The notes: generated from the letters alone by a model not told the origin. A DNA stretch of 64,000 nt from Candidatus Nomurabacteria bacterium (GCA_963842815.1 CAWJHU010000001.1:94497-158496), one strand, 5' to 3'; numbered from the stretch's first letter, positions 5,305 through 37,206 are shown. Numbers and translations are program-made.

Positions 5305-5360
5305 AATCGTTTTAATCTAACATAAACGAATTTCAAAGGCAAATTTGGGTTTTTATAAAA

Positions 5361-6023
5361 TTATTTCAACATTTTCTCAAATTCTTTAGGCAGAGGTGAT
5401 TCTACTTTAGTTTTTTTACCTTTTAAGTCTTTAAATTCTATGGACTTCGCGTGAAGTGCCAGTCTTTTAAAACCCTTTGGACAGGGCTTGCCCGGATTAT
5501 AAAGAGAATCACAGGCCACTGGATGATTTATAAATTTCATATGCACTCGTATTTGATGCGTCCGACCGGTTTTAGGGTGAATTTCTAAATATGAAAATTT
5601 ATTTTTTGAATCTTCAAATCTTTTTAAAACCCTGTATTCCGTAATAGCTTCCCGAAGTTCTCCCCTCACCCCGCGGCCGGCCAGATGCCGACGAAAATCT
5701 TTCGGACTTCGGCCAATGGGTTTGTTTATAGTATCGTGGTCATTTTTCACAAATCCCGAAACGATGGCGTGATAGGTTTTTTTTATTTCTCTTTCTTTAA
5801 ATTGATTTTTCAAAAATTCATAGGCTTTTTGGTTTTTCGCTAAAAGCAAAACACCGGATGTTTCTTTGTCTAAGCGATGAACTATTTCTATTTTGGGATA
5901 TTTTTTGATAAATAAATCCAGAATTGTTTTTTCTCTGCTTTTTTGGTCTGGGTGCACCAAAATACCCGAAGGTTTGTCTATGGCTAAAATATCTTTATCT
6001 TCATATAGGATTTTGATTTTCAT
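5361..6023 (-). CDS. RluA-family pseudouridine synthase
   Basis: HRLDKETSGVLLLAKN catalytic Asp motif; about 220 aa. Confidence 0.85.
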   Translation of the reverse strand: MKIKILYEDKDILAIDKPSGILVHPDQKSREKTILDLFIKKYPKIEIVHRLDKETSGVLLLAKNQKAYEFLKNQFKEREIKKTYHAIVSGFVKNDHDTINKPIGRSPKDFRRHLAGRGVRGELREAITEYRVLKRFEDSKNKFSYLEIHPKTGRTHQIRVHMKFINHPVACDSLYNPGKPCPKGFKRLALHAKSIEFKDLKGKKTKVESPLPKEFEKMLK

Positions 6024-6122
6024 TGATTAACCTTTATTTTAACAGAAATTCTTGAAATTTTCTATGAAAAATAAAAACACTCACAGATCATTGACCTGCG
6101 AGTGCTACTTATCTTAACTTAA

Positions 6123-6968
6123 TCAAAGCTTGAGATATTGCGACAAACTGTCCAGCATTCTTTGATAACTGCTGGGGATGGCAACTTCTCCAATAAAATC
6201 ATTGGAGGGGGTGCATTCCTCCATTGTCTCCATCTTACATTTATCAAGAAGAGTGATGGCCTGGCAACTAAAATGAGTCGCCAGTGCGGTGTTACCATTC
6301 TGACGATAGTGTTCCGAAATTGCATAAGCATATTCCGCAGCGTTTCTAGGATCCGTCTCTTTGCATGCTTCAAAAATTTCCTCAAGATCCGTATATCTCT
6401 CCCAAGAAAAAATTTCCGAAGGATCAAACCAATTGCTAATCTCATGTTTTGCATCAAATGTGTTTTTTGATGCGTGGATGAGATTCATCACCGAACGTTC
6501 CTCTTTGTTCGCCGATATCGGAGAATCAATCGAAAAATCTCCCCTGATTGTGCCAGGCTCCGCCAAATAAGGCAACGTATGCCCAACAATTTTGCGCGCC
6601 GTATCAACGGCATGGACACCCTGAAACACCATCGGCATTATGAGACCGGAAGATAAATAACAGAAATTCCACTTCTTTATCTTTTGTCCGATAACAAATG
6701 GATCTTCGCTGCCAAAAGTATCAACAACATTGGCTTTGTACTTTTGACAAGTTTTCAGAGTATTATCTCCTAACCCGCGAATCCAGTCATCCGTACTGGG
6801 GAAATGCCCTTCAAGTTGTTTTTTTGTTGCAAAAATTAATTTGCAAGCAACCATTTTAAGCCCTGGTTGTTCCAGTCTTTTAATTATTTTACCGACCAAT
6901 CCACGTTTTATTGCATCGGTCTTAATAATTACTAGTGTTTGTTCGCCAATTCCTTGTCGATTTTTCAT
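6123..6968 (-). CDS. ndk: Nucleoside-diphosphate kinase with an internal insert and a C-terminal extension of about 110 aa
   Basis: N-terminal EQTLVIIKTDAIKRGLVGKIIKRLEQPGLKMVACKL, then PGTIRGDFSID...NLIHASKNTFDAKHEISNWF with the catalytic His. At 281 aa it is about twice the normal NDK length. Confidence 0.75.
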   Translation of the reverse strand: MKNRQGIGEQTLVIIKTDAIKRGLVGKIIKRLEQPGLKMVACKLIFATKKQLEGHFPSTDDWIRGLGDNTLKTCQKYKANVVDTFGSEDPFVIGQKIKKWNFCYLSSGLIMPMVFQGVHAVDTARKIVGHTLPYLAEPGTIRGDFSIDSPISANKEERSVMNLIHASKNTFDAKHEISNWFDPSEIFSWERYTDLEEIFEACKETDPRNAAEYAYAISEHYRQNGNTALATHFSCQAITLLDKCKMETMEECTPSNDFIGEVAIPSSYQRMLDSLSQYLKL

Positions 6969-7170
6969 CGATTCCTCCTTTTAATGAACGATTTTTAAAA
7001 CCCTTAATGGATTTCTTCTGATGTGGAACATACCACACTCTATAGTTTTATACAAGAGCTGGCAGGGGTATGTTATTATTCTTTTCTTAAATTGTGCCCC
7101 CTCATGGTCTCGGATATTGTAAGGTGAGACGTTGTAAGGGTTTCTTCAGCAATTTTAGTATATCACAATC

Positions 7171-7190
7171 AGCCCTCTCGGTCGGGTCTG
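7171..7190. repeat. Left copy of a direct repeat (AGCCCTCTCGGTCGGGTCTG); putative attL-side boundary of the integrated element
   Basis: Shares the exact GC-rich core CCTCTCGGTCGG plus TCT with 24502-24520, which sits next to the 3' end of tRNA-Arg(TCT); a GC-rich 12-mer is unlikely by chance in this AT-rich DNA. Confidence 0.5.
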
Positions 7191-7294
7191 AAATAGACAC
7201 AATGCACACTATAAAAAAGAGGTGCGTTTTGAAATGCCAACAAATGCCAATAAAATGAACTTTTGAAGATTCCTAAATATGATAGAATCAATTT

Positions 7295-7912
7295 ATGCAG
7301 AAAGATCAAAAACAAAAAATAACGGTCTCTCGTCACCTAAAAGCCATGAAGCTATATTCTGGTGTAAAAAAGATCCAAGATAATTTCTTAAAAGAGATAA
7401 AGAAAAGGTACACGGACTCAATTAAAAAAGAAATAAAGAATCTATTTAAGAAAGTAAATCCTAATAAGGAAGATTTAGAATTTTTCGGTAGACATCTTAA
7501 AGGAGCAGTATTTCCAGATACAAAAAATATAATAATTCAAATAACAAACGATGCTATTCAAAATGAAATAATAAGAAAGTATTCTGAAAGTAATAAAATA
7601 ACAATTTATCTTTCTAAAAGTGGCGACTTGTATTTAGAACCGAAAGATGAACACTGCTATAAAATGGAAAAGGGCTCTATCCGTCATCAAATTATCTTGA
7701 CTCTAAAAGATAAAGATAATCCATATTCAACACAAGAAATAATGAATGATTCCGAGGCAAAAAACACCAGAGCTATCAGAGATGCAATTGGTCATATAAA
7801 TAAAAACGCTGATAAATTCCTTTCAATTCACAATACAGAAACAAGGAGGCTTATTGTAAACAAAAGTGACGGCTATCAGATTAATAATCTATACTGTATT
7901 TTCGAAAAGTAG
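7295..7912 (+). CDS. Hypothetical protein (Lys-rich, no recognisable domain)
   Basis: 205-aa ORF and the first gene inside the putative island; no motif recognised. Confidence 0.4.
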   Translation: MQKDQKQKITVSRHLKAMKLYSGVKKIQDNFLKEIKKRYTDSIKKEIKNLFKKVNPNKEDLEFFGRHLKGAVFPDTKNIIIQITNDAIQNEIIRKYSESNKITIYLSKSGDLYLEPKDEHCYKMEKGSIRHQIILTLKDKDNPYSTQEIMNDSEAKNTRAIRDAIGHINKNADKFLSIHNTETRRLIVNKSDGYQINNLYCIFEK

Positions 7913-18359: not shown

Positions 18360-18992
18360 TTAGTATACTTTTTGGATAAGAGAAATAAATCTATCTAATT
18401 TTTCAATTAATTCATCAACTGATTCTTTTATTACAACATTTTTTGTATATGAAGCATTGGCACTATTCAGACTTTTAGGGTGAATTGTATTTCTTAAATG
18501 ATTTATATCATCAAGGTAAGTTTTCCAACTTTGATTTCTGAAAAAACCCGCTTTATTGAATATATCTAATAAATATCCCAATCCCGTATTTTTATTGCTT
18601 AGTTTTTCAGAAGCAATGACACTACATAAATCATTTTTCTTTTTTGCGTTTGTTCTGTGTTCAAACAAATCAAAAAGCAATCCTTCATATATGGAAGCAG
18701 ACAACTGACAAAGAACAAGTTTGTGTTGCCAACCAAAAGTAAGTCCTGGTTTTAGAAATTCATATACACTTCTATGATAATCTAAACACATTCTTAGTTC
18801 AGCGAGATTATTTCTTAATTCAAAATCTTTTACAAAAGAAAACATAGGACGATAATGACTACCTAAATTTTTACTTATTTTTCTACCATCAGATAATTTC
18901 ATTTTCCAATAGCAAAATCTATCTGGTAAAGATTGCAAATTATCGTGCACTGTCATAAAACAATCTTCGGTTGAATGTTCTACACTACTCAT
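18360..18992 (-). CDS. Hypothetical 210-aa protein inserted between mod and res
   Basis: Overlaps the mod stop by 4 nt and ends 4 nt before the res start; no recognisable domain. Confidence 0.45.
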   Translation of the reverse strand: MSSVEHSTEDCFMTVHDNLQSLPDRFCYWKMKLSDGRKISKNLGSHYRPMFSFVKDFELRNNLAELRMCLDYHRSVYEFLKPGLTFGWQHKLVLCQLSASIYEGLLFDLFEHRTNAKKKNDLCSVIASEKLSNKNTGLGYLLDIFNKAGFFRNQSWKTYLDDINHLRNTIHPKSLNSANASYTKNVVIKESVDELIEKLDRFISLIQKVY

Positions 18993-21112
18993 ATTTTCAC
19001 ATCAATTACTCTAGTAGTATCATTCCCGAAAATATCGACTACTTTTACAGCCACTTTATAAGTTCCCTTAGGTAATTCTTTTGGAGTAGAAACTAATTCA
19101 AGATTTCTTTTCTTCTTGGTTCTAAATTCTTGCCATTCATTGTCAAAAACATAATCGCCAGTCCAAACTTCTTTCTCTTTGCCATCCTCAATAACTTTTA
19201 CAATTTCTTGTCTACTAGAAAAATCATAATCAACTGCCCAATAATCAATCCAATCACTCCATTTTTTAGTCAAAGTTTCTCTTTCCACAAGTTCAGTTTT
19301 CTTATCTTTACTTATCTTTATTACTTGACCATTTTCAACAACAACCTTTGAGCTTCCAGCCTTCAATCCCTCCTCTATTTCTCCAGTATTGTCTTGATTA
19401 TAGAAAACAGAGAAATCTGTTAACTCAATAGAAAGCTCTTTGTTATTTCCTTTACCTTTGATAATTGGCTTTATTTCAATAAACGCAACATCGTAGAATT
19501 TTACTTGTCCTTTTTCTACAGCTCTTTTATCAAACACTTCTCTAGGAATTATTTTGAAGGCAATATCAATTCCTTCATCTTTATATTCCTGGAAATCCAA
19601 ACCCATTTCGTAATCAAAACCAAGCACATCAATTTTGGTAATGCTCTTTTCTTTGCACTCTTTAACTATATCTTTTACTAACTCATGAGAAACAGGAGTA
19701 TTTATTGGACCAACGGCAATCAACCGATCTCTTTTCTTCCCAACAATATTTACAAATGATTCTACTGGTTCAGCTTTATAGGCAGAAATAATTAATTTAA
19801 TAAATTCTCTTTCTTTTCTTTCAGCTTGTTTAGCTTTTTGTTCTGCCCTTAAATCATTATTTAATTCAAGAAAACTTTCTCTTTCATATTTACCAACATT
19901 TAGGATTTCAAAAGCTCTAAAATTCTTACCTTCTTTTTTAAGTTCTCTTTGAACTCCAATAAGTCTCTTCCTTGAGGTATGAGTAGCAAATTTACCTAAA
20001 TCAGATCCAATCCACTTTCTATTGAGTTTTTCAGCAACAGCCATAGTTGTTCCAGAACCACAGAAAAAATCAGCAATTAAATCACCTTCGTTTGAAGATG
20101 CATTTATAATTCTCTCTAATAATTTTTCAGTTTTTTGTGTTGGATAACCTAATCTTTCCTGAGAAGTAGAAATCTGTTGAAACGACATAATATCACTCCA
20201 AACATCCCCAATTGCTTTACCTTTAGCAAGAGTTTCATCTAAATATCTTTTTTCTCCACGACCACCAAAATATCTTCTACCATCTTCATCAATTTTATCA
20301 AATCTATCTATATATTCTTTTCTATGTTCAGTTGATAATTTATTAAAAATAAAAGAATCTTTATTTTTTGAATAAAAAAGAATAGTATCGTGACCCCTTA
20401 TCCAATTTCTTGCAATACTCTTGTATCCACTTAAAACACTTATATCCCAAATTATTTCTCTTTGGAAATTATCTGCCCCAAAAAGCTCATCTAAAACTAA
20501 GCGAATATGGCTATTTACCCTGTGGTCACAATGAACATAAATACTTCCATCTTCTGCAAGTAAATCATACATCAATCTTAACCGTTCATAAATCATGGAA
20601 ATAAAACTATTTGCTCCATTACCCCAAGTATCACGAAAAGCAACCTCTTCTATTACTGAAGGTTTTTTAGTAAAACTTTCCTCTTCCTCACCATCACCAA
20701 TTTTTATATCCATAGAAAAATCTGCCCCAACATCAAAAGGTGGATCAATGTAAACAAGTTTAAGTCCTCCTTGTGCTTCTATCTCTTTTCTAAGTGGTCC
20801 GTTTTTAAGAGAAGAAAGGATAAGCTTGTTATCGCCCCAAATAAGTTTATTAGTCCAGCCAGTTACTTGTCTTCCAGACATATCAAAAAGAGAATCCTGT
20901 AATCCAATTTTATCTTCTCCTCTAGGCTCATCAATTTGTTCAATAGTTTGAAAAGGTAAAACGGTAGTCGTTACGTCATTTGTTTTACCATTCCAAACAA
21001 GCTCTACTTCTCTGTCATCCTTGAATAGCAAAAACCGATATTTATCTGGTAATGACTTACCAGCTTCTAAGAATTTTACTATATCTCGTTTTTCATTGTC
21101 AGATAGTTGCAT
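18989..21112 (-). CDS. mod: Type III R-M Mod subunit (beta-class N6-adenine DNA methyltransferase) with a C-terminal extension of about 250 aa
   Basis: KLVYIDPPFDVGADFS (motif IV, DPPF), then GYPTQKTEKLLERII and FFCGSGTTMAVAEKLNRKWIGSD (motif I); the IV-to-I order marks the beta class. Confidence 0.8.
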   Translation of the reverse strand: MQLSDNEKRDIVKFLEAGKSLPDKYRFLLFKDDREVELVWNGKTNDVTTTVLPFQTIEQIDEPRGEDKIGLQDSLFDMSGRQVTGWTNKLIWGDNKLILSSLKNGPLRKEIEAQGGLKLVYIDPPFDVGADFSMDIKIGDGEEEESFTKKPSVIEEVAFRDTWGNGANSFISMIYERLRLMYDLLAEDGSIYVHCDHRVNSHIRLVLDELFGADNFQREIIWDISVLSGYKSIARNWIRGHDTILFYSKNKDSFIFNKLSTEHRKEYIDRFDKIDEDGRRYFGGRGEKRYLDETLAKGKAIGDVWSDIMSFQQISTSQERLGYPTQKTEKLLERIINASSNEGDLIADFFCGSGTTMAVAEKLNRKWIGSDLGKFATHTSRKRLIGVQRELKKEGKNFRAFEILNVGKYERESFLELNNDLRAEQKAKQAERKEREFIKLIISAYKAEPVESFVNIVGKKRDRLIAVGPINTPVSHELVKDIVKECKEKSITKIDVLGFDYEMGLDFQEYKDEGIDIAFKIIPREVFDKRAVEKGQVKFYDVAFIEIKPIIKGKGNNKELSIELTDFSVFYNQDNTGEIEEGLKAGSSKVVVENGQVIKISKDKKTELVERETLTKKWSDWIDYWAVDYDFSSRQEIVKVIEDGKEKEVWTGDYVFDNEWQEFRTKKKRNLELVSTPKELPKGTYKVAVKVVDIFGNDTTRVIDVKI

Positions 21113-21116
21113 ATAA

Positions 21117-21512
21117 TTATCTAGAACTTGGTGGAGATCTTTTTATAAACATTGGACGATAATTGGGGTCAATTTGTACACTTTTATTTTTACATAAAGG
21201 GCAATCAAAAAAGGCAGGATTTCCACACGGTTGCATTCTTATGGTCTTTTTATTATCATCCCAACAACTAGAACAAAGTGGACCATCTTTCTTGCCATCC
21301 TTAATAATCCAGTATGCATTATTCTCGTAAGCTAGGCTCTCTTTCGTTTCTAATTTTTCTTTTAAAACTCGATTTTCTGTATCTAGCTCAGAAATTTTAT
21401 TCTGCATTTCTAAGAGTTTTTCCTGTATACCCAAAATTTGCTCATATTGTGGGATTTTGTCTGCTTCTCTAAGAGTTCCTGCTATGGATTTTAGTTCGTC
21501 AAAAATTACCAT
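21117..21512 (-). CDS. Hypothetical coiled-coil protein with a C-terminal 4-Cys zinc ribbon; first gene of the mod operon
   Basis: LEMQNKISELDTENRVLKEKLE coiled coil, then CSSCWDD...CGNPAFFDCPLCKN; its stop lies 4 nt before the mod start. Confidence 0.4.
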   Translation of the reverse strand: MVIFDELKSIAGTLREADKIPQYEQILGIQEKLLEMQNKISELDTENRVLKEKLETKESLAYENNAYWIIKDGKKDGPLCSSCWDDNKKTIRMQPCGNPAFFDCPLCKNKSVQIDPNYRPMFIKRSPPSSR

Positions 21513-21636
21513 AATATTTTTATCCTAGCACTTTTTGACCTAAAAATAAAGGAGTTTTTGATGAAATTAGTTACCAACATTTTACCAACTTACCCCTCCT
21601 AGACTCTCAGGCGGGGTTGCGTCATTCCTTAGGTAT

Positions 21637-22956
21637 ATGAATACATCACAAATGCCAGTTGGAGCTATGGCGAGAGAAATACAAGCCCCAGTAAAGGTGA
21701 AATATTGCCTTTATGCTAGAAAATCTACGGAAAGTGAGGAGGCTCAAATACTTTCCATAGATAGCCAGATTAAAGAAATGTTACAGATGGCGGAACGCGA
21801 TCACCTTGAGGTAATAGAAATAAAAAAAGAATCACACTCGGCGAAGGAAGCCGGACAGCGGCCAGTTTTTAATGAAATTGTTGATGAGATCAAACAAAAG
21901 AAATTCAATGGAATCCTAACATGGAACGCAGATCGTATTTCCAGAAACGCTGGAGATCTTGGAAGAATTGTAGACTTGATGGACGCAGGAATATTACACG
22001 AGATACGTACCTTTGGGCAGAAATTTTCAAACAGTCCGAATGAGAAATTTCTGCTGATGATTTTAGGGTCACAAGCTAAATTAGAGAATGATAACAAAGT
22101 AGTAAATGTTAAAAGAGGACTCCGAGCAAGATGTGAAATGGGTCTCTGGCCATGCACTGCCCCGACTGGATATCTCAGCAGTAAAAACACCGACAAACGA
22201 TGTCATGTTGAAATTGACCCACATCGGGCGCCGATTATCAAAAAAATGTTTGAGAAAGTGGCATATGAAAAATGTAGCGGGCGAAGATTGCACGCATGGT
22301 TAAAAGATGAAATGAAATTTAAGACTAGGAACGGAAAAATTTTCAGCATCAGCAATATTTACATAACTCTCAGAAATACTTTCTACTACGGCAGTTTTGA
22401 ATATCCAAAGGGTGGCGGGCAATGGTACACCGGCAAGCATACGCCAATAATTTCTAAAGAATTATTTGATAAGGTACAAGAACAAATGATGGAGTACACA
22501 AGGAATAGTGAACACAAAGAATTTGCCTTTACTAAATTAATGACCTGCGGACTGTGTGGATCGGGCATAACGGCTGATGAGAAATTCAAAAAACAAAACA
22601 ATGGAAATGTGCATCGGTATGTTTACTACGGATGTTGCAGATTCCAGGACAAAAATTGTAAATCGGGTTACATGCGAGAAGAAGATTTGATTGAGCAACT
22701 TGCAGGACTGATGGATGAAATTGACCTTGATGAGATCGGGATGAAGCAGAAGATTAAAGACGAAATTGAGCGACATAAGAGATTCAATATAGGCATACTC
22801 GGACTAAAAGAAGCAACCGTCAAAGTTGCAGATGTTGATATACGAAATTATGCTAAACATGTTCTGCGAGGTGGTAGCCTGGAAGAGAAACGAGAATTGC
22901 TGACTTGTTTAAGAAGTAAAGTGGTTATGAATAATAAAGAAGTAAGAATTAGTTAA
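21637..22956 (+). CDS. Large serine recombinase (resolvase/invertase catalytic domain, recombinase domain and zinc ribbon)
   Basis: YCLYARKSTESEEAQILSIDSQ carries the catalytic Ser; also LTWNADRISRN and C-terminal CGLCGSGITADEKF...CCRFQDKNCKSGYMREEDLIEQ (zinc ribbon plus coiled coil). Confidence 0.85.
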   Translation: MNTSQMPVGAMAREIQAPVKVKYCLYARKSTESEEAQILSIDSQIKEMLQMAERDHLEVIEIKKESHSAKEAGQRPVFNEIVDEIKQKKFNGILTWNADRISRNAGDLGRIVDLMDAGILHEIRTFGQKFSNSPNEKFLLMILGSQAKLENDNKVVNVKRGLRARCEMGLWPCTAPTGYLSSKNTDKRCHVEIDPHRAPIIKKMFEKVAYEKCSGRRLHAWLKDEMKFKTRNGKIFSISNIYITLRNTFYYGSFEYPKGGGQWYTGKHTPIISKELFDKVQEQMMEYTRNSEHKEFAFTKLMTCGLCGSGITADEKFKKQNNGNVHRYVYYGCCRFQDKNCKSGYMREEDLIEQLAGLMDEIDLDEIGMKQKIKDEIERHKRFNIGILGLKEATVKVADVDIRNYAKHVLRGGSLEEKRELLTCLRSKVVMNNKEVRIS

Positions 22957-22972
22957 AAGTATCTGGGCTTTT

Positions 22973-24472
22973 TTGTCATTCCTGCTACAATGCGCTAATA
23001 ACCTGATGAAAATACAAGATGTAAAAATTGGAAGAAACGACCCTTGTCCATGCGGCGAACTTAAACCAGATGGAAAGCCAAAGAAGTATAAAAACTGTTG
23101 CTTAAATAAGGAAACGCCTAATAAAAAGAAAATGGTTAAAATGACGATTAGTAGAAGAGATTTCATATCTGGACCATATAAACAGTGCCCAAAATGCCTA
23201 AGGAAGAGCTCATTTGGGGTCTTTATACCAACCTCTGGTACACATAGCTATTCTAGAGAGTGTGTTGAGTGCGGACACAAACAAGGATACCCATTGCCGA
23301 AAATAAAAAAGAAGATTTTATATTTAGATCAATTTGTAATAAGCAATTTAATTAAATTTCTGGATAAAGATCACCCAAGTCACGAAAAAATTAAAAAGGA
23401 TCCTTTTTGGAAAGAATTATTTATAAAACTGGAAGCTGCTTCAAAATCACAAGCAATCGTTTGCCCGGACAGTTTTTATCACCGAGACGAATCGCTTGTC
23501 GGATCCACTGATTTTAAACTAATGAAAAGACTCTATGAGCATTTTTCAAGCGGAAAAACTCTTCATTCTGGTAACGAGATACAACGAATGCAAATTTATG
23601 AACACTTTGAGAAGTGGTTGCAGGGACAAAAGGCAAAATTTAATTCTGATCCAAAATATATATCTTCAGAAGATTTAGACACTTGGTCGGTAGGATTGCA
23701 TATAACAGTAAATATGCGCCCATTCCCCGGAGAAGTAGATAACCTTCGAGCTACAAACACTAGCACAAGAGAACAACTAAAGAATATATGGTCTATGTGG
23801 CAATCAGAAAAAGATTTCAAATTTACAAATAAAGTAAAAGAAGAAACTCTAGGATTGGGGAAAGGGCTGATAAGCGTAGCTCAAAAATTCCAGCAGAAAA
23901 GAGCTGACGCAATGAAAAAAATGGAATCTGGTGAAGACTATACTCTTGATCTTAACGATATTTTACCACCTGAATCTAACGGAATTCTTGATGATTTATT
24001 AAGACTTTCCAGAACGCATGGTATTTCTGAAGAAAATCTCTTAGGTACTATTATAAAATACTTCAACGATGTTGATGCCCTTTTAGAAATACCTAAAATC
24101 CGTATAAGCTCAGTGATGTTTGCGGGTTTAGCCAGAAGAGCCCAAATGGGTAAGAAAGAACCCCCAAAATCTTTTACGGATGTTGAGTTCATATCAAGCT
24201 ATTTACCATACTGTGATGCAATGTTTGTAGATATAGAATCCGCAACGATTTTAAAAGAACCTCCCAAAGAAATACCATTAAACTTAAAACTAAAAGAATT
24301 CCCAGCAAAAATATTTTCGCTAAATCAAAAGAAAGAATTTTTAGATTACCTTGACCAACTAGTTAAAAAAATTCCAGCGGAGCAAATGGAAATTTTGAAA
24401 GACGTAACCGGCGACAACCATGACAAGCCCTATTGGGATATTATTGAACACGAAAAGAGAGAAAGAGACTAA
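22973..24472 (+). CDS. SEC-C motif / zinc-ribbon protein (499 aa), function unknown
   Basis: GRNDPCPCGELKPDGKPKKYKNCC is a SEC-C metal-binding motif; a second CxxC...CxxC ribbon follows. The start may be the internal Met at 23006. Confidence 0.5.
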   Translation: MSFLLQCANNLMKIQDVKIGRNDPCPCGELKPDGKPKKYKNCCLNKETPNKKKMVKMTISRRDFISGPYKQCPKCLRKSSFGVFIPTSGTHSYSRECVECGHKQGYPLPKIKKKILYLDQFVISNLIKFLDKDHPSHEKIKKDPFWKELFIKLEAASKSQAIVCPDSFYHRDESLVGSTDFKLMKRLYEHFSSGKTLHSGNEIQRMQIYEHFEKWLQGQKAKFNSDPKYISSEDLDTWSVGLHITVNMRPFPGEVDNLRATNTSTREQLKNIWSMWQSEKDFKFTNKVKEETLGLGKGLISVAQKFQQKRADAMKKMESGEDYTLDLNDILPPESNGILDDLLRLSRTHGISEENLLGTIIKYFNDVDALLEIPKIRISSVMFAGLARRAQMGKKEPPKSFTDVEFISSYLPYCDAMFVDIESATILKEPPKEIPLNLKLKEFPAKIFSLNQKKEFLDYLDQLVKKIPAEQMEILKDVTGDNHDKPYWDIIEHEKRERD

Positions 24473-24501
24473 TTCTTTTTTTACAATTAAAAAACACTTT
24501 T

Positions 24502-24520
24502 AAGCCTCTCGGTCGGTCTC
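24502..24520. repeat. Right copy of the direct repeat (AAGCCTCTCGGTCGGTCTC), 10 nt from the tRNA-Arg 3' end; putative attR side
   Basis: See 7171-7190. Confidence 0.5.
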
Positions 24521-24529
24521 ACTAACGTG

Positions 24530-24601
24530 TGCCCCTGGTAGGAATCGAACCTACATCGACGGCTTAGAAGTCCGCAGTTCTATCCATTGAACTACAGGGG
24601 C
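24530..24601 (-). tRNA. tRNA-Arg (anticodon TCT); no encoded CCA
   Basis: Reverse complement GCCCCTGTAGTTCAATGGATAGAACTGCGGACTTCTAAGCCGTCGATGTAGGTTCGATTCCTACCAGGGGCA; anticodon loop CTTCTAA is identical to E. coli tRNA-Arg(UCU), with one A.G mismatch in the anticodon stem. Confidence 0.7.
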
Positions 24602-24602
24602 C

Positions 24603-24678
24603 TGGTGCGCGGTAAGGGACTCGAACCCCTGACCTTCCCGGTGTAAACGGGTTGCTCTACCAACTGAGCTAACCGCGC
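24603..24678 (-). tRNA. tRNA-Val (anticodon TAC), CCA encoded
   Basis: Reverse complement GCGCGGTTAGCTCAGTTGGTAGAGCAACCCGTTTACACCGGGAAGGTCAGGGGTTCGAGTCCCTTACCGCGCACCA gives a perfect cloverleaf. Confidence 0.85.
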
Positions 24679-29954: not shown

Positions 29955-30088
29955 ATATTTTTTTATTAACTAATAATATTGATACAAAATATAGCATATT
30001 CTGTATGTACGGATATATACGTTAAATGGGGCTAAAATGGTGCATAAAAATGTGGATTAAAAACAAATACTGAGGTATAATTAAATTA

Positions 30089-30556
30089 ATGGATCCGAAC
30101 AAAAAATTGGAATGGACTGCATTAGAATACGAGGAAAAGGAACGAGGAAATGATTGGTTCTGGGCGCTCGGCGTTATCGTAGTGGCAGGTTCTGTCGCTT
30201 CATTTATTTACAGCAATTATTTTTTCGGCTTGCTTTTAATCATCGGTGGAATATTGCTTGGGACTTTTGCCGTTAAAAAACCGGATTTGGTTTTTTACGA
30301 ACTGAATGAAAAAGGATTAAAAATAAAAAACCGCCTCTACCCCTACGAAAATATAAAAGCTTTTTGGATAAAGGAAATGGGAGAAAAGCCCGTGCTTTTC
30401 ATAAAATCGGAAAGATTATTTATGCCCATAATCTCCATGCCCATAAAACAAAATCTGGCGGGAGAAATAAAAAATCTGATGCTAAAAAACGATGTCTCGG
30501 AAGAAGAAATGAAAGAACACGTATCCGAAAAAATAATGGATTCTCTGGGCTTCTGA
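30089..30556 (+). CDS. Hypothetical membrane protein
   Basis: 155 aa with two TM helices. Confidence 0.4.
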   Translation: MDPNKKLEWTALEYEEKERGNDWFWALGVIVVAGSVASFIYSNYFFGLLLIIGGILLGTFAVKKPDLVFYELNEKGLKIKNRLYPYENIKAFWIKEMGEKPVLFIKSERLFMPIISMPIKQNLAGEIKNLMLKNDVSEEEMKEHVSEKIMDSLGF

Positions 30557-30604
30557 TTTGAGTTTTTTAATAAAAACTGTTAGTCTTCAATTGCGGAAAA
30601 TAAC

Positions 30605-30679
30605 GCCCTCATAGTTTAATGGATAGAATGCGAGCTTGCGGAGTTTGCGATGTAGGTTCGATTCCTACTGAGGGCACCA
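30605..30679 (+). tRNA. tRNA-Arg-like paralog (my fold gives anticodon GCG; the weak anticodon stem may mean degeneracy), CCA encoded
   Basis: GCCCTCATAGTTTAATGGATAGAATGCGAGCTTGCGGAGTTTGCGATGTAGGTTCGATTCCTACTGAGGGCACCA. The D-arm and the whole variable/T-arm (CGATGTAGGTTCGATTCCTAC) are identical to tRNA-Arg(TCT) at 24530-24601; perfect acceptor and T stems. Confidence 0.6.
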
Positions 30680-30884
30680 TTAGGGAACTCATCGGTTTTT
30701 TGGAAGCCAAAATGCGGGACGCGCGAAGCGCGTCCCAAGGATTCCCGCCGAATTCCCCCAACGAATTCAGAATTTTTGGCGCGCTGGCGCGCACTGTTTT
30801 TTCGCCAAGAAGCAGGTTCGAGCCAAAGATTTCTTTGGCTACAGACCTTTTTAGCAAAAAGGTCGGAATCAGAATGCAATTTTG
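30675..30884 (+). repeat. Repeat X1: GC-rich, hairpin-dense repeat starting at the tRNA CCA (inverted partner at 32394-32558)
   Basis: About 95% identical to the reverse complement of 32394-32558 apart from a 43-nt insertion; contains perfect hairpins GGGACGCGC-GAAG-GCGCGTCCC and GGCGCGC-TG-GCGCGC. Confidence 0.8.
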
Positions 30885-32215
30885 TCCAATGCTTGTGCGT
30901 CTTTTACCCAGTTTTGGAAAGGTTCGAGCCAATCATTTTGCTTGTGTGAAAGAGAAGTCATTTCTTCTTCGAGCGACTTCTTTTGCAAAAGTAGTTTTCC
31001 TTTTTCAGAACGATAAATTTCTTTTTCAATATCTTGGTCAAGATATCCAGTAAGAAGTCGCTCTAATTTTTTTGAAATGAAGATATTTTTTCTTCTTTCT
31101 CTTTCACACAAGCAGTCAAAGACTGGGCGGAATTTTTGTGGTCTTTTTCTGCCATTTTCAATAATTCCTCCGCCCAGTCTTTGGGCAAAGAAACTTTTTG
31201 AATGAGTGATGATAACTGATTATCTAATTTTTCTTGGCGAATACAAGGTTCGGGACACTTCAAACTTTTAGTTTTTCTTCGTGCAGTGATAATAAACATA
31301 TTCGTGAACATTTCCATTTTTCTGTTTCTTCACCTTGTATTCGCCAGTTATCATCATTCCGCATGAAGCACAGGAAATAAGTCCGCAAAAAGGTTGAGGT
31401 TCATTTTTTGGTTTTCGTTCAGGTTGTACCACGTTGTTTCAACATTTCCTGTGCTTCATCAAAAAGTTTCTTTGAAATGATTGGCTCGTGCTTTCCTTCG
31501 TGGAGTTCACCACCATATTTAAATAATCCGATGTAAAAAGGATTTGAAAGAATAAAAGACGCTCTGGTTTTGTGAGATTCTCTTTCCGGTTCTTGAATAT
31601 AATGCCGGTTTTCGCCAAAAAGTTTGAAATATCTTCCAGCCGTATGATTTCCTTTCACGTATTTTCAAAAGCCAAGCGGATAATTTTAGATTTCTTTTTA
31701 TCAACCACAATATGTTTTTGTTCTGCGAATCGTTTAAATATCCCACTGGCGCTTGGCTTGGAAATATTCCCATTTCTAACTTTTTGGCGAAGTCCGCGTT
31801 TCGTATTTTCGGAAAGAGAATCTACATAGTATTTGCTTTGTCCGAAAGCCATATTCAACATAAATTTTCCTTGTGATGTGTTATCACACCAAAATGTTGG
31901 AAATTTTAGGCTCGCAAGTTTCCCTGTGTCGAGGAGATAAATAACTTTGACCTCCGTCCACCGAATTGCGGGCAAGACGATCGGGATTCCATGCGAGAAT
32001 GTTTCCGCCGAATTTTTCAATCTCATCTCATCATTTTATTAAAAATCGGACGACCTGGAATTTTCGCAGATTGTTTTTCAATACTATTCGGCGGAAATTT
32101 CAATATTTTCTCGCTTGGCATACTCCCGCAATTCGGTGAGTTGCGCGTCAATACTTAAAACTTGTTTATCCTCGACATCAGTGGACTTGCGAGCATACAA
32201 AAAGAATTTTTGCAT
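30869..32215 (-). pseudogene. Large serine recombinase pseudogene (at least five fragments separated by frameshifts and stops)
   Basis: Fragments: 32215->32095 MQKFFLYARKSTDVEDKQVLSIDAQLTELREYAKRENIEISAE* (catalytic-Ser region); 32026->31655 ...YVDSLSENTKRGLRQKVRNG; 31658->31419 ...GLFKYGGELHEGKHEPIISKKLFDEAQEM; then 31317->31063 and 31111->30869 (zinc ribbon and coiled coil). All align to the intact recombinase at 21637..22956. Confidence 0.75.
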
Positions 32216-32393
32216 ATATTTTTTTATAAAGCAGAAATGGCTACTCTAGTGTTGAAACCTTAACGAAAAGTTAAGATAGCTAGAATAGCCATTTCTGCTA
32301 ACTTTTCTAATAATCGGTTTCAACATTTCTAGTATACCAAAAAATATTTTATATCAAAAATTCTTTTTGTATTTTCTGACAAAGCAAATTCGT

Positions 32394-32558
32394 CAAAATT
32401 GCATTCTGATTTCGAACCTGCTTCTTGGCGAAAAAATAGTGCGCACCAGCGCGCCAAAAATTCTGAATTCGTTGGGGAAATTCGGCGGGAATCCTTGGGA
32501 CGCGCTTCGCGCGTCCCGCATTTTGGCTTCCAAAAAACCGATGAGTTCCCTTATGGTG
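32394..32558 (-). repeat. Repeat X2 (inverted copy of X1), joined at its outer end to repeat Y1
   Basis: Reverse complement matches X1; its outer end ...GAGTTCCCTTATGGTG abuts Y1. Confidence 0.8.
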
Positions 32559-32873
32559 TCTCTATTGTACCAAGTTAGAACCTATTTTCAAAACAAAGTA
32601 TCCTAGCGTTCCCCCGCGTGCTAAAGCACCTCTGTGCAGAAGCACAGAGCTTTCTCAAAGAGAAAGTGCGGGGAAAACGCTGAACGGCTCAAATACTGGG
32701 AAATGAGCCGTTCAAGAAAAAATGGACTCGGTTTTGCGAAACAATTTTGCGGGAGGAAGGATTCGCAAAACCGAGACTAAAGTTTTTTGAAATTCGGCGG
32801 GATTCGGGTTTCCGCCCCGCAGGAGGGTGCGGGAGGAATGCGGGGCGGGCATTTTGGATTTTTGGGCGGGCAA
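32554..32873 (+). repeat. Repeat Y1: about 320 bp, GC-rich and structured (inverted partner at 34644-34961)
   Basis: About 95% identical to the reverse complement of 34644-34961; hairpins CTCTGTGC-AGAA-GCACAGAG, GAACGGCTC...GAGCCGTTC and CTCGGTTTTGCGAA...TTCGCAAAACCGAG. Confidence 0.8.
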
Positions 32874-32909
32874 GTAGAAAAAGAAATACAAAAATGGTAA
32901 AATCTTTCT

Positions 32910-33299
32910 ATGAAAGATTTTGATCAATGGAATGAGCTAAAAAAGAAAATTGAAGCCGAGAAAAATAATCCTGAAAAATTTCCCAAAGAGGGAGAAGTTT
33001 GGATGAGTAATGTTGGCAAAAATATTGGCTTTGAACAAAATGGAAGCGGAGATAATTTTTCTCGTCCTGTTTTAATTGTGAAGAAATTTAACAATCATAT
33101 GTTTTGGGCTATATCACTTTCTACCAAACAAAAAGATTTTGATTTTTATTTCAATTTTACTGATTCAAATAATCAAAAAGTTTCCGCTATTTTGGCACAA
33201 ATGAAATTGATTAGTGTTAAAAGATTGAAAAGAAAACTTTATGATATTCCAAATGAACTTTTTGATGAAATGAAACAAAAATTAAAATCTTTTCTCTAG
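32910..33299 (+). CDS. PemK/MazF-family toxin-like protein with no adjacent antitoxin
   Basis: GEVWMSNVGKNIGFEQNGSGDNFSRPVLIVKKFNN...ISLSTK resembles Kid/PemK GEIWLVSLDPTAGHEQQGTRPVLIV...VVPVTS; followed by the hairpin terminator GAAACCCCGC-TTTTG-GCGGGGTTTC. Confidence 0.55.
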   Translation: MKDFDQWNELKKKIEAEKNNPEKFPKEGEVWMSNVGKNIGFEQNGSGDNFSRPVLIVKKFNNHMFWAISLSTKQKDFDFYFNFTDSNNQKVSAILAQMKLISVKRLKRKLYDIPNELFDEMKQKLKSFL

Positions 33300-33302
33300 A
33301 AA

Positions 33303-33330
33303 CTCGAAACCCCGCTTTTGGCGGGGTTTC
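33303..33330 (+). terminator. Rho-independent terminator after the MazF-like gene
   Basis: GAAACCCCGC TTTTG GCGGGGTTTC. Confidence 0.55.
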
Positions 33331-33644
33331 TCGGAGCCTTTCGGCACTTTGTATACTAAGTATAGCAAGCCAATAGACAAAGTCAAGCGAAATTTTTGAA
33401 TTACTAAAAGCTTGGCTTTTTGGCTTGTTTTTTATATAATAAAAGCACAATTTAATATGAAGACCTAACCCTTTGTTTTTTCATTGGCATGGTCAAAGAA
33501 ACTCGCTACAAGATAAAAAACTCCTCGTCAGAGTACTTGTAGCGAGTCATAGCTGGAAACGGCTGTGGGTAGTCTTTGGACTATCGGCTGGCGGGGATTT
33601 TTGTCAAAGTTTTCTTCTAGTTAAAATAAAAATCTCGCTACAAT

Positions 33645-34625
33645 ATGAAAAATAAATTTTTAAATTATTGTCTCATTTTTTCCTTAATATTGGTTGGTTA
33701 TTTTTTCTTTATTTCTAAAACATCAGCCGAAGAATCATGCACAGTACAGAATGCAAGTTTTTCACCCAGTGGAACTTTGCCAGATTTCTTAAATTCGGGT
33801 GGTAATATCAGTATTAATGTTGAAACTAATAACTGTGCTGGAAAAACAATTTTACTCACAGTTTTTGGAACACATGAACATTGGATCGGGCAAACTTCAC
33901 TTGCGGGGCAACTAACATCACCACTTGATGTTTCCGGTTTGCATAATAAACCTATTACTGTTCCAAACTCTGAAAACTTTAAAATTGATTTAATTGCAAA
34001 TGAGGAATCTTGTATAGGCCGTAATTCTTTTGTTAGTACATTGGGTGGACAAGCAATATATGCCACTTATGACTGTGCCTATTATTTTGAATTTGGTGGA
34101 GCAACAAATTTTAGTTCAATATCTTTTCCAAGTGGTGGAATAATTTATAACTGTAACGGTGAATGTGAAGATCAACAAAAACCTTGGAGTTTTATTTCAA
34201 TGACTGAACTTACAGCAGGTGGTGGAGGTGGTGGAGGACAAGGAGGTGGTGGTTCAGGTGGAGGTGGAGGAAGTGGTGGTGGAAATTATACTCCACCAGA
34301 ACCTGTTGATCTTTCAACAAGCGGAGGAGGTTTAAGTGCGGCTTGTCCAAAAACTGGATGTGGATTTAATGAATTAATGGAAATGGTTAATAAAGTTATT
34401 CACTTCATACTTTTTGATTTAGCTATGCCAATCGCGGCTATAATATTTGCATATGTAGGATTTTTACTTATTACAAGCGGAGGTAATCCAGAAACAAAAA
34501 ACAAAGCCAAGAAAATTTTTTGGAATGTATTTATTGGATTTGTTATTGCTTTAGCCGCTTGGTTGATTGTTAAAACAATTCTTTCAACTTTAGGATATAC
34601 TGGCACATCTTTTTTGGCTGATTAA
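33645..34625 (+). CDS. Secreted protein with a Gly-rich linker and a C-terminal TrbC/VirB2-like pilin domain
   Basis: Signal/TM at the N-terminus; GGGGGGGQGGGGSGGGGGSGGG linker; C-terminal LAMPIAAIIFAYVGFLLITSGGNPETKNKAKKIFWNVFIGFVIALAAWLIVKTIL is the two-helix VirB2/TrbC-type pilin pattern. Confidence 0.5.
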   Translation: MKNKFLNYCLIFSLILVGYFFFISKTSAEESCTVQNASFSPSGTLPDFLNSGGNISINVETNNCAGKTILLTVFGTHEHWIGQTSLAGQLTSPLDVSGLHNKPITVPNSENFKIDLIANEESCIGRNSFVSTLGGQAIYATYDCAYYFEFGGATNFSSISFPSGGIIYNCNGECEDQQKPWSFISMTELTAGGGGGGGQGGGGSGGGGGSGGGNYTPPEPVDLSTSGGGLSAACPKTGCGFNELMEMVNKVIHFILFDLAMPIAAIIFAYVGFLLITSGGNPETKNKAKKIFWNVFIGFVIALAAWLIVKTILSTLGYTGTSFLAD

Positions 34626-34643
34626 AATAATTTTAATCTTTTG

Positions 34644-34961
34644 TTGCCCGCCCAAAAATCCAAAATTCTCGCCCCGCATTCCTCCCGCACCCTCCTGCGG
34701 GGCGGAAACCCAAATCCCGCAGAATTTCAAAAATCTTTAGTCTCGGTTTTGCGAATCCTCCCTCCCGTAATATTGTTTCGCAAAACCGAGTCCATTTTTT
34801 CTTGAACGGCTCATTTCCCACCATTTGAGTCGTTCGGCGTTTCCCCGCACTTTCTCTTTGAGAAAGCTCTGTGCTACTGCACAGAGGTGCTTTAGCACGC
34901 GGGGGAACGCTAGGATACTTTGTTTTGAAAATAGGTTCTAACTTGGTACAATAGAGACACA
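34644..34961 (-). repeat. Repeat Y2 (inverted copy of Y1); its outer end resembles a degenerate tRNA 3' half
   Basis: Reverse complement matches Y1. The outer terminus GGTTCTAACTTGGTACAATAGAGACAC resembles the tRNA-Arg 3' half GGTTCGATTCCTACTGAGGGCACCA. Confidence 0.8.
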
Positions 34962-34983
34962 ATTTGAAAATTAATTTCTATTT

Positions 34984-37206
34984 TTACTCCGCGTTCATTT
35001 TTATTTTAGTCTTCGCTCCCACAAGACCATCGGCTACCAAGCCTTGGGCTTTTTGCCATTTCTTGATGACAGCAATTGTCTTCGGACCTAGTTTCCCATC
35101 TACCGCCAAGCCCAGACTTAATTTATCATTCAGGAATCTTTGCAATTCCATAACGGCTGCTCCTCTGCTTCCGTTTTTCAAGGTGACCGTACCGAAGTTG
35201 TAAGTAGCTGTTACGCCTGTGCCTGCGTTTCCCGCACAGGATACGCCGGTGGTTGTGCTGAAGCCGGTGGTTCTATTGTCACAGCCGGGGATGGTGGTTT
35301 TCGTACTGAGAGAAGTTGTTGTTGTTGCCGGAGGATAGTACCCTCCTCCACTTCCGCCGCCTCCGCCGCCAGTAGTGGTAGTTGAGGAATTTGTGTTGCT
35401 TCCACTATTATTGCCAGTATTAGTGGTGCTTGTTGAAGTTGAAGGAGGGGTGGTTGTAGTGGAAGAAGGAGGAGTGGTGTCAGTTGCGGGAGGAGATGCA
35501 ACAACAACAGTAGTATTCCCAACCGATTGAGCTACGGCTTCCCATAATGGATTAGAAGTTTGCAAAGTAGATTTATTCGGAAGCCAACCGGCCGGAAAAT
35601 CATAAATCATAAAACCGCCGAAGTTTTTTTGCTTGACCCATTGCATAATTGCGCTGACAGACTGGGGAGTTTGCACGTCATATAAATAATTATTCCACAA
35701 TGCCCAGGAAGCTTCGGCTGAACTGTCCCATTGAAAAACAGCGGATGGGTCGTTTCGCATGTCGTTTCTCGCTTGAACGTAAGCCCAGGAAGTGTATTTG
35801 TCTCCTGGTTTTGTTGCTCCTCCAAATTTTATAGATTCAAAAGAAATTGAAATGGCCATTTTGGACACATCATAGCCCCCGGTGATGAAACTAATTGCAT
35901 TATCATTTAAAGTACATCCTGCCAATCCAAGATACTGGGTTGATTTATATACGGGCGTTCCATATCCGGCGACGGGACCTCCGCAATTAACCCACATGGT
36001 ATAGGTCATCGCATACATTTGGTCTAAATCCGCGTTCATCACAAGCGGGTCGTAAGCATTATGAAATGTTGCCATATCCAAGGACTCAACCAGAATTCCG
36101 CGCGTCGGCCATTTGTTAAGTTCCGTACGATAATCATTCAAAAGATAACTATGCTCGCTTTTAACATTGGGCCATTCCCAGTCAATTTCAATTCCGTCAA
36201 ACCCATTGGCTTGGGCATAGGCGGAAGATTGCTGAACCAGCATATCAATTTTGGCCGGGTCGGAAGAAATGGCATTGAGGTTCGTCCCCGGATATACGCT
36301 CGCGACACTTAGCAAAACTTTCACGTTATGACTATGAGCTGCCGCAATGGTTCGGCTCAAATAGGACCTTCCGGAAGAATCTTTGAAATCCAAACCGGAA
36401 GATGAAAAATATGGAGCGCTTGTAATTACTCCTCCCCCTGTAAACAAAACCATGTGAGTCATGCCGGTCCAATCTATATTTTCCGGGTCCAAAGTGCCCC
36501 ACCACCAATCTGGATAATATCCCACAAGCCACATTCCACTTGAAGATGATGAACTGCCGCCGGAAGTAGTGCCGGAAGAAACAGGAGGGGTTGAACCGGA
36601 ATTCGTGTTGTCCACGGGAGGAGGATTAGAAACCACCGGCGGAACAGTCCCCGAAGGAGCAGAAGACCCGGCCGGGACAAATTGAATTTCATCCAGATAA
36701 AATGTTCTCGGTTGCCCACTTGTCTCGGTAATATAAAAACTATTTATCGGATGATTTTCCGGGTCAAGGGTGCTCATCGGTATATTAAAAAGAGTCCAGA
36801 TATTGGCTGGAGCGCTGGCAGTATATCCAGGGAAAGAATCTCCGGCATCGTTTTCAAATTTAAACTGAAGGGCAGCGCCCTGGGTTCCTCCATAGACAGC
36901 GACGGAAAAAAAAGAATATTGGCTGGAAAGAATATTGTTATGAACCCCCCAATTGCCATTTCTTGCCCTGAAAGCTCCCCAGATGCCGTTGATTACTTTT
37001 ATGGATGTGGTTCCGGCATAGGCCTGTTCGGTACTGTTAATTACCCTGGAGCTGGCATAGGAAACATCCATCCAGGGAGAATTAAGAGATGAATCCTGAT
37101 AAACATAAAGGGGGGCTGTTTGACCATGAACGAAAACAGCCGTTCCTATAAAAATTAAAGTTAGGATAAAAAGAAGCGCATAAAATTTTTTTGTTAATAT
37201 TTCCAT
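34984..37206 (-). CDS. Secreted GH18-like glycoside hydrolase with a C-terminal peptidoglycan-binding domain (PG_binding_1) and Ser/Thr/Gly-rich linkers
   Basis: Signal peptide; NGFDGIEIDWEWP is the GH18 DGxDxDWE catalytic motif; C-terminal GSRGAAVMELQRFLNDK...VDGKLGPKTIAVIKKWQKAQGLVADGLVGAKT is the peptidoglycan-binding repeat. Confidence 0.7.
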   Translation of the reverse strand: MEILTKKFYALLFILTLIFIGTAVFVHGQTAPLYVYQDSSLNSPWMDVSYASSRVINSTEQAYAGTTSIKVINGIWGAFRARNGNWGVHNNILSSQYSFFSVAVYGGTQGAALQFKFENDAGDSFPGYTASAPANIWTLFNIPMSTLDPENHPINSFYITETSGQPRTFYLDEIQFVPAGSSAPSGTVPPVVSNPPPVDNTNSGSTPPVSSGTTSGGSSSSSSGMWLVGYYPDWWWGTLDPENIDWTGMTHMVLFTGGGVITSAPYFSSSGLDFKDSSGRSYLSRTIAAAHSHNVKVLLSVASVYPGTNLNAISSDPAKIDMLVQQSSAYAQANGFDGIEIDWEWPNVKSEHSYLLNDYRTELNKWPTRGILVESLDMATFHNAYDPLVMNADLDQMYAMTYTMWVNCGGPVAGYGTPVYKSTQYLGLAGCTLNDNAISFITGGYDVSKMAISISFESIKFGGATKPGDKYTSWAYVQARNDMRNDPSAVFQWDSSAEASWALWNNYLYDVQTPQSVSAIMQWVKQKNFGGFMIYDFPAGWLPNKSTLQTSNPLWEAVAQSVGNTTVVVASPPATDTTPPSSTTTTPPSTSTSTTNTGNNSGSNTNSSTTTTGGGGGGSGGGYYPPATTTTSLSTKTTIPGCDNRTTGFSTTTGVSCAGNAGTGVTATYNFGTVTLKNGSRGAAVMELQRFLNDKLSLGLAVDGKLGPKTIAVIKKWQKAQGLVADGLVGAKTKIKMNAE

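Follow-up and report, generated by a model that had tools for sequence, protein, structure and literature searches.

The window analysed here, a stretch of 64,000 nucleotides (64 kb) from Candidatus Nomurabacteria bacterium (GCA_963842815.1, CAWJHU010000001.1:94497-158496), carries at positions 30675-34960 a compound structure of about 4.3 kb that abuts the 3′ end of a tRNA-Arg gene. It consists of two adjoining segments, each enclosed by its own long inverted repeat. The first pair of arms, X1 and X2, brackets the remains of a gene for a large serine recombinase (LSR), and the second pair, Y1 and Y2, brackets a small cargo of other genes. The landmarks are listed below; attachment sites (att) and their arms, P and P′ for attP, B and B′ for attB, are named according to the reading developed in the text, and the core is the short sequence common to the junctions.

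30605-30679, plus strand: tRNA-Arg(GCG), a complete gene (ARAGORN; Rfam tRNA, 62 bits).
30609-32215, minus strand: LSR pseudogene between the X arms, with about seven frame changes and several in-frame stops.
30675-30884, minus strand: X1, which encodes the C-terminal end of the recombinase (..AKEIFGSNLLLGEKTVRASAPKILNSLGEFGGNPWDALRASRILASKKPMSSLMV..); its outermost 20-25 nt are the putative P′ arm of attL.
32394-32558, plus strand: X2, which repeats part of the recombinase 3′ end in inverted orientation, on the P′ arm side of the putative internal attP.
32556-32873, minus strand: Y1, a conserved, apparently non-coding structured module with several hairpins, its outer 35 nt being the putative P arm.
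34644-34960, plus strand: Y2, the inverted partner of Y1, whose outer end and core CAC (34958-34960) would form the P-O part of attR.

Comparison of the window with itself pairs the X arms at 30675-30821 and 32412-32558 (inverted, 97% identity over 147 nt, E 5e-67). Next to this run, X1 holds 45 extra nucleotides (about 30823-30867), corresponding to an in-frame deletion on the X2 side, and beyond the indel a further 18-nt match stretches the repeat to 30884 and 32394. The Y arms pair 32553-32873 with 34644-34963 (inverted, 95.3% identity over 321 nt, E 3e-145), and neither X nor Y has a further copy elsewhere in the 64 kb. Self-comparison and arm alignment thus bear out both the repeats and the positions reported by an earlier sequence-only reading of this DNA, and Pfam matches uphold the gene identities that it proposed, a serine recombinase, a MazF-like protein and a pilin.

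The protein reconstructed from the pseudogene contains Resolvase, Recombinase and Zn_ribbon_recom domains (Pfam PF00239, PF07508 and PF13408), which are also present in all 120 listed homologues, and the closest solved structure is that of the A118 integrase (best PDB matches 4KIS and 6DNW). Homologues are 515-580 aa long. The motif YARKSTD is invariant in 20 homologues (R9, K10, S11), survives in the window as the remnant MQKFFLYARKSTDVED, and is read as the catalytic-serine motif of the family recombinase. With the lesions listed above the window gene is no longer functional, and the repeats have diverged by 3-5%; the window element is a fossil, an inactive copy. The open reading frame (ORF) at 30609-30932 matches the conserved C-terminus of intact homologues (82% identity to the tail of homologue P0047), and the consensus of that C-terminus, ..AKEIFGSNLLLGEKTVRA.AP...W..LR....LAS.KP.SS.LV...G.EP, equals the X1-encoded ORF. 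The recombinase frame crosses the junction into the antisense strand of the tRNA gene, and in intact relatives it ends there, the terminal 'G[ILF]EP' being the T-loop translated antisense. X is accordingly the 3′ coding end of the recombinase gene and not the end of a transposon.

Relatives of this structure are abundant in bacteria of the Candidate Phyla Radiation (CPR, or Patescibacteria). At E≤1e-10, 7,585 of 8,000 scored candidates are recombinase homologues, the best of them 75% identical, and a scan of one genome per species recovers at least 592 relatives. We examined 80 loci from many Patescibacteria classes. An intact recombinase gene together with an inverted duplicate of its 3′-terminal 114-219 nt is present at 61 of the 83 loci with enough sequence; the copy sits 100-350 nt upstream of the recombinase start and is 100% identical in 32 of the 61, in a data set for repeat identity that comprises almost only intact recombinase genes. 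About 20 of the 61 also show an abutting Y pair, with X2 and Y1 overlapping by 3-7 nt, and where the contig continues, the other genes enclosed by the Y pair span 1.2-5.2 kb. A convergent tRNA gene adjoins the recombinase gene at its 3′ end, and the tRNAs represent at least 13 amino-acid types and about 25 anticodons. The layout of tRNA, X-recombinase-X′, Y′-cargo-Y and flank is seen at over 60 independent loci. A genome may carry more than one element (L016 and L024; L034 and L048), and viral contigs yielded a single distant relative.

This recurrence bears on the possibility of a one-off rearrangement in the window genome, either an inversion that trapped an attP or a recombination between two elements. 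Such an event would be plausible in isolation, the window copy being decayed, but over 60 independent assemblies, across many CPR classes and tRNAs, have the identical layout, and this comparison refutes it; we regard a singular accident as highly improbable. The trapped-attP inversion offered by the sequence-only reading yields to a layout that is the rule among independent loci.

An assembly collapse, or a chimeric join across the repeats, would have precedents in these data. Repeats of this kind do break short-read assemblies, and many contigs end inside X or Y. One independent assembly (L001, Logan ERR10755942) holds the same cargo as the window, corresponding to 32818-34699, and ends 56 nt into both Y arms. 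It breaks at the first identical run to exceed the assembler's k-mer length, which explains the many recombinase-only contigs of 1.7-2.2 kb, and the contig confirms the repeats in another data set. A search with flanking proteins returned only short Logan contigs, broken in the repeats. Fold-back contigs also occur: in L202, positions 1-2387 are the perfect reverse complement of 5186-7572, with the tRNA and the recombinase at both ends, and we rejected this contig (1-7572) as a circle or dimer in favour of a fold-back assembly palindrome caused by the Y-core repeat, a caution for any search for circles or dimers of such elements. Against an artefact at the window locus, the same order and junctions appear in dozens of independent assemblies, and the window arms are not collapsed, because they differ by 3-5% and by the 45-nt indel. 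An artefact has next to no chance of being the explanation.

The junctions of the window element define three further features.

30675-30677, plus strand: attL core CAC, comprising the last acceptor base, discriminator A73 and C74, as read from the sequence.
32530-32592, minus strand: putative intact internal attP, inverted, with P arm (Y end GAAAATAGGTTCTAACTTGGTACAATAGAGA), core CAC(CA) and P′ arm (TAAGGGAACTCATCGG..).
34961-34990, plus strand: B′ flank, presumably the original DNA downstream of the tRNA gene, giving an ancestral attB of the form ..GAGGGCAC / AATTTGAAAATTAAT.

The left junction reads ..GAGGGCAC / CATTAGGG (tRNA / X), the middle junction, on the minus strand, ..GAGACAC / CATAAGGG (Y / X), and the right junction ..GAGACAC / AATTTG (Y / flank); CAC is the sole sequence common to all three. 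In 21 loci, too, what the three junctions have in common is the final acceptor base, the discriminator and C74, to which some loci add the remainder of CCA and a few further bases. The shared length is 3-8 nt, with cores such as CAC, CTC and AGC, and the 3-nt minimum (CAC or CTC) is reached in five independent cases (the window, L017, L019, L036 and L045). In every one of the 21 loci the core matches the discriminator of the tRNA that is used, and outside the core everything at attL and attR is hybrid, in the window and the 21 loci alike. The DNA beyond attR is unrelated between loci and is often a terminator hairpin or the next tRNA gene, as expected if it is the original flank of the tRNA. 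The outer 35 nt of Y, on the other hand, are conserved across the family irrespective of the tRNA and contain GTTC, as does the T-arm. In about 45 Y arms the distance from this GTTC to the core is 22 nt, compared with 18 nt in the tRNA arms, a shift of 4 bp that resembles the attP/attB spacing rule of LSRs: in the published LI/A118 integrase work, the zinc-ribbon-domain (ZD) motif lies 5 bp nearer the centre in attB than in attP (PMC3783163). By this analogy, GTTC would be the ZD-binding site.

The shared core, its match to the discriminator, the nature of the DNA past attR and the GTTC shift together lead us to read tRNA/X as attL, Y/flank as attR and Y/X as a complete, inverted attP. The T-arm and acceptor 3′ strand of tRNA-Arg(GCG) are then taken to be the B arm of the original attB, the CCA end of this tRNA comes from the element, and the three junctions point to an ancestral attB of the window locus reading ..GAGGGCAC / AATTTGAA... 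The sequence-only reading had recognised the attL-like, inverted attP-like and attR-like parts and the tRNA-like end of Y, and on these points the three-junction comparison and the T-arm motif agree with it; its proposed specificity for tRNA-Arg does not survive, since relatives use about 25 different tRNA genes. It had not recognised the recombinase tail in X, the conserved, structured non-coding character of Y, or the 4-bp difference in spacing between P and B arms.

The same junctions weigh on the idea that two transposons with terminal inverted repeats (TIRs) lie side by side, an autonomous X-recombinase-X′ and a separate Y′-cargo-Y. Each cassette is indeed bracketed by its own long inverted repeat. 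However, X consists of coding sequence of the recombinase itself, X2 and Y1 overlap by the core in all cases, and the bases outside the cassettes are inverted complements (CACCAT..ATGGTG) rather than a direct target duplication. The recombinase segment is always adjacent to the tRNA and the cargo segment always distal, no DDE transposase is present, and the window holds no second, dispersed copy. A pair of transposons is very unlikely, and the earlier suggestion of a new TIR-bearing element class, like an insertion sequence or a miniature inverted-repeat transposable element, fails on the same grounds: X is the coding end of the recombinase, no target site is duplicated, and the window contains a single copy.

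Both orientations of the recombinase segment exist in nature. Among the 120 homologues, 73 have a C-terminal tail that is the antisense of a tRNA (..xxxG[ILF]EP..), and 28 have a tail that is the antisense of the Y end (..LLYQVRTYFQNK; consensus ..LLYQVRTYFQN[KR]). In the flipped state the tRNA lies directly upstream of X2 and the recombinase gene, as seen in L006, L015, L038, L062 and L065, and L086 and L002 are compatible with it. From assemblies, inversion in place cannot be told from the integration of a circle by one or the other of its attP sites. Recombinases with bodies 95-100% identical differ in their tRNA- or Y-encoded tails (P0047, P0049 and P0051; P0116 and P0120) and are therefore located at different tRNAs where the tails are tRNA-derived, which we read as a sign of recent mobility.

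Several loci show variants of this organization. In L084 (8560-10755 of a 49-kb contig) the recombinase segment lies between two different Y ends, with no tRNA, which looks like the outcome of an insertion into the tRNA-like Y end of a second element, a route to nested or tandem arrays. Derivatives that lack the recombinase segment (L198, at 2021-2066, L125 and L159) keep a Y end and the convergent tRNA; both att-type sites survive, and between them lies a perfect 43-nt palindrome made of two 20-nt P′ arms and a 3-nt loop. Three candidates for free circles were rejected, L041 for its disrupted X1 and L086 and L002 for being contigs limited by the repeats.

These orientations are also what would be expected of a host-domesticated, tRNA-linked double invertible switch of the shufflon or Hin kind, in which the two segments flip in place to phase-vary expression of the cargo or the recombinase and no longer integrate or excise. 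The two orientations of the recombinase segment are both common, and the recombinase gene, like hin, lies within the invertible segment. The arms often match at 100%, the Y end has an outward promoter-like site, and X has a terminator-like hairpin. A switch would nevertheless have to accommodate cargo genes with no relationship from one element to the next and no alternative ends, the use of about 25 tRNAs, recombinases that are 95-100% identical at different tRNAs, an LSR of 520-540 aa in place of an invertase of about 190 aa, the several elements that share one genome (L016/L024; L034/L048), and the many decayed or truncated copies, that of the window included. The unrelated cargo and the near-identical recombinases at different tRNAs argue for a mobile element and against a shufflon-like host switch, which we consider unlikely. 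Of the invertible two-segment structure put forward in the sequence-only reading, the part that stands is the existence of both orientations of the recombinase segment, and the part that does not is the shufflon-like switch.

We read the anatomy of the locus, its conservation, the many tRNAs in use, the two orientations of the recombinase segment and the decay of the window copy, all of which are observed directly, as probably those of a large family of small, LSR-moved, tRNA-targeting CPR/Patescibacteria elements, of which window 30675-34960 would be a decayed member. Under this mobile-element reading, the target of the element would be a tRNA gene's 3′ end, and the crossover would fall inside N72-N73-C74. 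Integration would yield attL (B arm plus P′) and attR (P arm plus B′), with a second, complete and inverted attP (Y-core-X) between them. X comprises the final 115-185 nt of the recombinase gene, Y would carry the P arm, and the cargo between the Y copies would be freely exchangeable. Since the attP core lies just before the recombinase stop codon, integration would swap the last residues of the protein. Excision through attL and attR would be predicted to release a circular form in which two inverted attP sites sit within the long inverted repeats. If one attP is used for integration, its partner would stay intact and the observed structure would be regenerated; use of that partner instead, or a later flip across the repeats, would give the flipped isomer. 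Gene conversion or flipping would keep the arms identical in live copies. Canonical LSRs recombine neither attL with attP nor attP with attP, so that flipping in place may rely on homologous recombination.

Several points weigh against this mobile-element reading. The GTTC shift is 4 bp, compared with the published LSR shift of 5 bp, and the B′ arm has no conservation, which is unusual for an LSR attB. An inversion in situ by the recombinase would be non-canonical, homologous recombination being a possible alternative. The predicted empty site of the window locus is absent from metagenome contigs, and no free circular form was found in contigs, viral ones included; the double-attP circle is for this reason a deduction from the integrated form. 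The recombinase of the window copy being a pseudogene, that copy is unable to act by itself. Nor does this reading give a purpose to the second attP or to the long identity (115-185 plus 150-400 nt).

The element shares much with known LSR modules, such as those of A118/LI, Bxb1, phiC31 and TP901-1, TnpX/TndX and CcrAB of SCCmec. They have in common the architecture of Resolvase, Recombinase and Zn-ribbon domains, the attP x attB logic with few core bases in common and, by the GTTC shift on one side and the published LI/A118 rule on the other (PMC3783163), an outer motif nearer the centre in attB than in attP. Unlike these modules, the family targets the 3′ end of essentially any tRNA gene with a core-matching discriminator, leaves the B′ arm unconserved, places the attP core in the 3′ end of the recombinase gene, and keeps a second, inverted and intact attP with hundreds of base pairs of flanking identity when integrated. 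No candidate recombination directionality factor was identified in it, and apart from the one distant match it is nearly absent from viral contigs.

Serine-invertase switches, TIR transposons and tyrosine-integrase tRNA islands were each compared with the family by their defining features, and each comparison failed on some of them. With tyrosine-integrase tRNA islands and prophages, of the kind held in the Islander database, it shares insertion at the tRNA 3′ end, a tRNA kept whole by element sequence and a small accessory cargo. Unlike them, it uses a serine enzyme as its sole recombinase, has long inverted repeats, and lacks a long direct repeat of the tRNA 3′ end at the far side; 3-8 nt are shared, and the displaced Y end is tRNA-like in motif alone. 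With Hin, Gin and Cin segments and with shufflons it shares a recombinase gene in or abutting a segment between inverted sites and the occurrence of both orientations (the 73 tRNA-encoded and 28 Y-encoded tails). Unlike these, it has an LSR in place of an enzyme of about 190 aa, repeats of 115-400 nt instead of sites of about 26 bp, no alternative gene termini, unrelated cargo and clear integration into many tRNAs.

The yeast 2-micron plasmid (Flp/FRT) resembles the predicted circle, itself deduced from the integrated form, in having two long inverted repeats that each hold a recombinase target, two unique segments of which one encodes the recombinase, and two isomers. Unlike the plasmid, the family relies on a serine and not a tyrosine recombinase, its cargo yielded neither a replication gene nor an origin, and the element is chromosomal. 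In integration-dependent immunity of mycobacteriophages, attP lies inside a gene and integration alters the C-terminus of the protein. Both systems would swap a C-terminus, although here it is that of the recombinase itself and only at its extreme tail.

Three smaller features lie in or beside the repeats.

30779-30802, plus strand: terminator-like hairpin and T run in X1 (GCGCGCTGGCGCGC ACTGTTTTTT), read inward from the tRNA.
32216-32393, minus strand: spacer between X2 and the recombinase start codon, defined from the sequence (self-match 32195-32372).
34925-34952, plus strand: outward promoter-like site in the Y end, TTGAAA and a TG-extended TACAAT separated by a 16-nt spacer.

The terminator-like motif is repeated in X2 at 32441-32454 on the minus strand, and a GC hairpin followed, from the core inward, by a T tract is found in X of 33 of 48 relatives; it likely replaces the tRNA gene's own terminator. 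A second hairpin in X, perfect and GC-rich (30715-30737 and 32496-32518), encodes the recombinase-tail motif W-D-A-L-R-A-S-R, and since the hairpin covaries among family members selection may target it and not the peptide. The spacer holds a hairpin of about 70 nt (AGCAGAAATGGCTACTCTAG...CTAGAATAGCCATTTCTGCT, around 32231-32300) directly upstream of the recombinase start codon. The promoter-like site recurs at 32591-32564 on the minus strand, directed through the attP core into X2; transcription from the Y end might yield a short antisense RNA complementary to the 3′ end of the recombinase gene. Canonical forms of the site number 9 among 48 Y arms, all of the window-type subfamily, and 0 among 41 tRNA arms; a universal sigma70 promoter in the Y end was rejected on these counts in favour of a subfamily feature.

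The Y module was compared among the window copies (32556-32873 and 34644-34957), L002, L007, L004, L017 and L024. Identity is 88-90% over about 320 nt among the window, L002 and L007. The module is GC-rich, with a structured part of about 250 nt inside the P arm and C-rich (TCCTCCC) hairpin loops. Read from inner to outer end, its folding far exceeds that of shuffled sequences (z -7.8), and 13 base pairs are compensatory across seven Y sequences. One hairpin, with an A run on one side and a T run on the other, resembles a bidirectional terminator. We take Y to be non-coding because its ORFs differ between copies and between relatives; protein coding was rejected, the two 136-aa ORFs being only 33% identical, with gaps. 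An Rfam search of 30000-35500 returned tRNA and LOOT matches only, and hence no known RNA for X or Y. The Y module is a candidate for a new RNA or DNA structural motif.

The cargo of the window element comprises the following.

32910-33299, plus strand: PemK/MazF-like toxin ORF, 129 aa, intact (Pfam PF02452, E 1.5e-8).
33462-33585, plus strand: LOOT RNA (Rfam RF03000; 78.2 bits, gathering score 46.4, E 4e-14).
33645-34625, plus strand: secreted protein of 326 aa, intact, with a C-terminal type IV secretion system pilin (TrbC/VirB2-like) domain (Pfam PF18895, E 9e-10).

The MazF-like gene is also present in the two closest elements, L007 and L004. The LOOT RNA lies 60 nt upstream of the pilin-like ORF and follows the MazF-like gene, which has no visible antitoxin; it is a candidate for a leader of the pilin gene or for an RNA partner of the toxin. 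Across 16 elements the cargos have no protein family in common and no replication gene was seen in them. They include an aminotransferase, a glycosyltransferase, a HaeII restriction-modification pair, a reverse transcriptase, an alanine racemase, a radical SAM enzyme, a type IV pilin, a helix-turn-helix protein and a short-chain dehydrogenase/reductase.

Elsewhere in the window, at 21637-22956 on the plus strand, a second and unrelated LSR ORF of 439 aa (37% identical to the family) stands beside a 707-aa methyltransferase-like ORF and a 499-aa ORF, within 18989-24678. The 499-aa ORF ends 57 nt from tRNA-Arg(TCT)/tRNA-Val(TAC), and there are no long inverted repeats. The region may represent another LSR island, a simple one, at a different tRNA.

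By its domains and att logic the family belongs to the LSR integrative elements, and it is apparently undescribed. The architecture was not found in the full-text literature searched, where the reports retrieved contain neither generic tRNA targeting by an LSR nor an att core inside the recombinase gene, neither a tRNA-mimicking P arm nor a constant internal inverted attP with long repeats; a large LSR survey, in the part that the search covered, makes no mention of tRNA (PMC10083194). Taken jointly, the features admit a bolder and tentative proposal, which is possible but which we do not favour as it stands: a distinct class of serine-recombinase elements with a 2-micron-like double-attP circle as transposition intermediate, generic entry into tRNA genes, an active internal attP, and the tail and X as reporters of the integration state. 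If true, the recombinase would read a generic tRNA 3′ half (T-arm motif plus acceptor end) and enter nearly any discriminator-matched tRNA gene. The internal attP would be active in the chromosome, with segments flipping and cargo swapped between elements by cassette exchange, and the exchange of Y- and tRNA-encoded recombinase tails, together with the antisense/terminator unit in X, would report the state of integration.

A second inverted attP that is constant, and an att core within the recombinase gene, are not predicted by the standard serine-integrase model. An LSR that needs only a match to the discriminator and C74 would be a natural multi-site integrase with landing sites conserved in every organism, and a multi-site, tRNA-recognising LSR would be of direct interest for genome engineering. 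The repeats of these elements also explain many short, broken CPR contigs. CPR bacteria have tiny genomes with few recognised mobile elements, and a family in which each element carries a different small cargo may be a main route of gene exchange among them.

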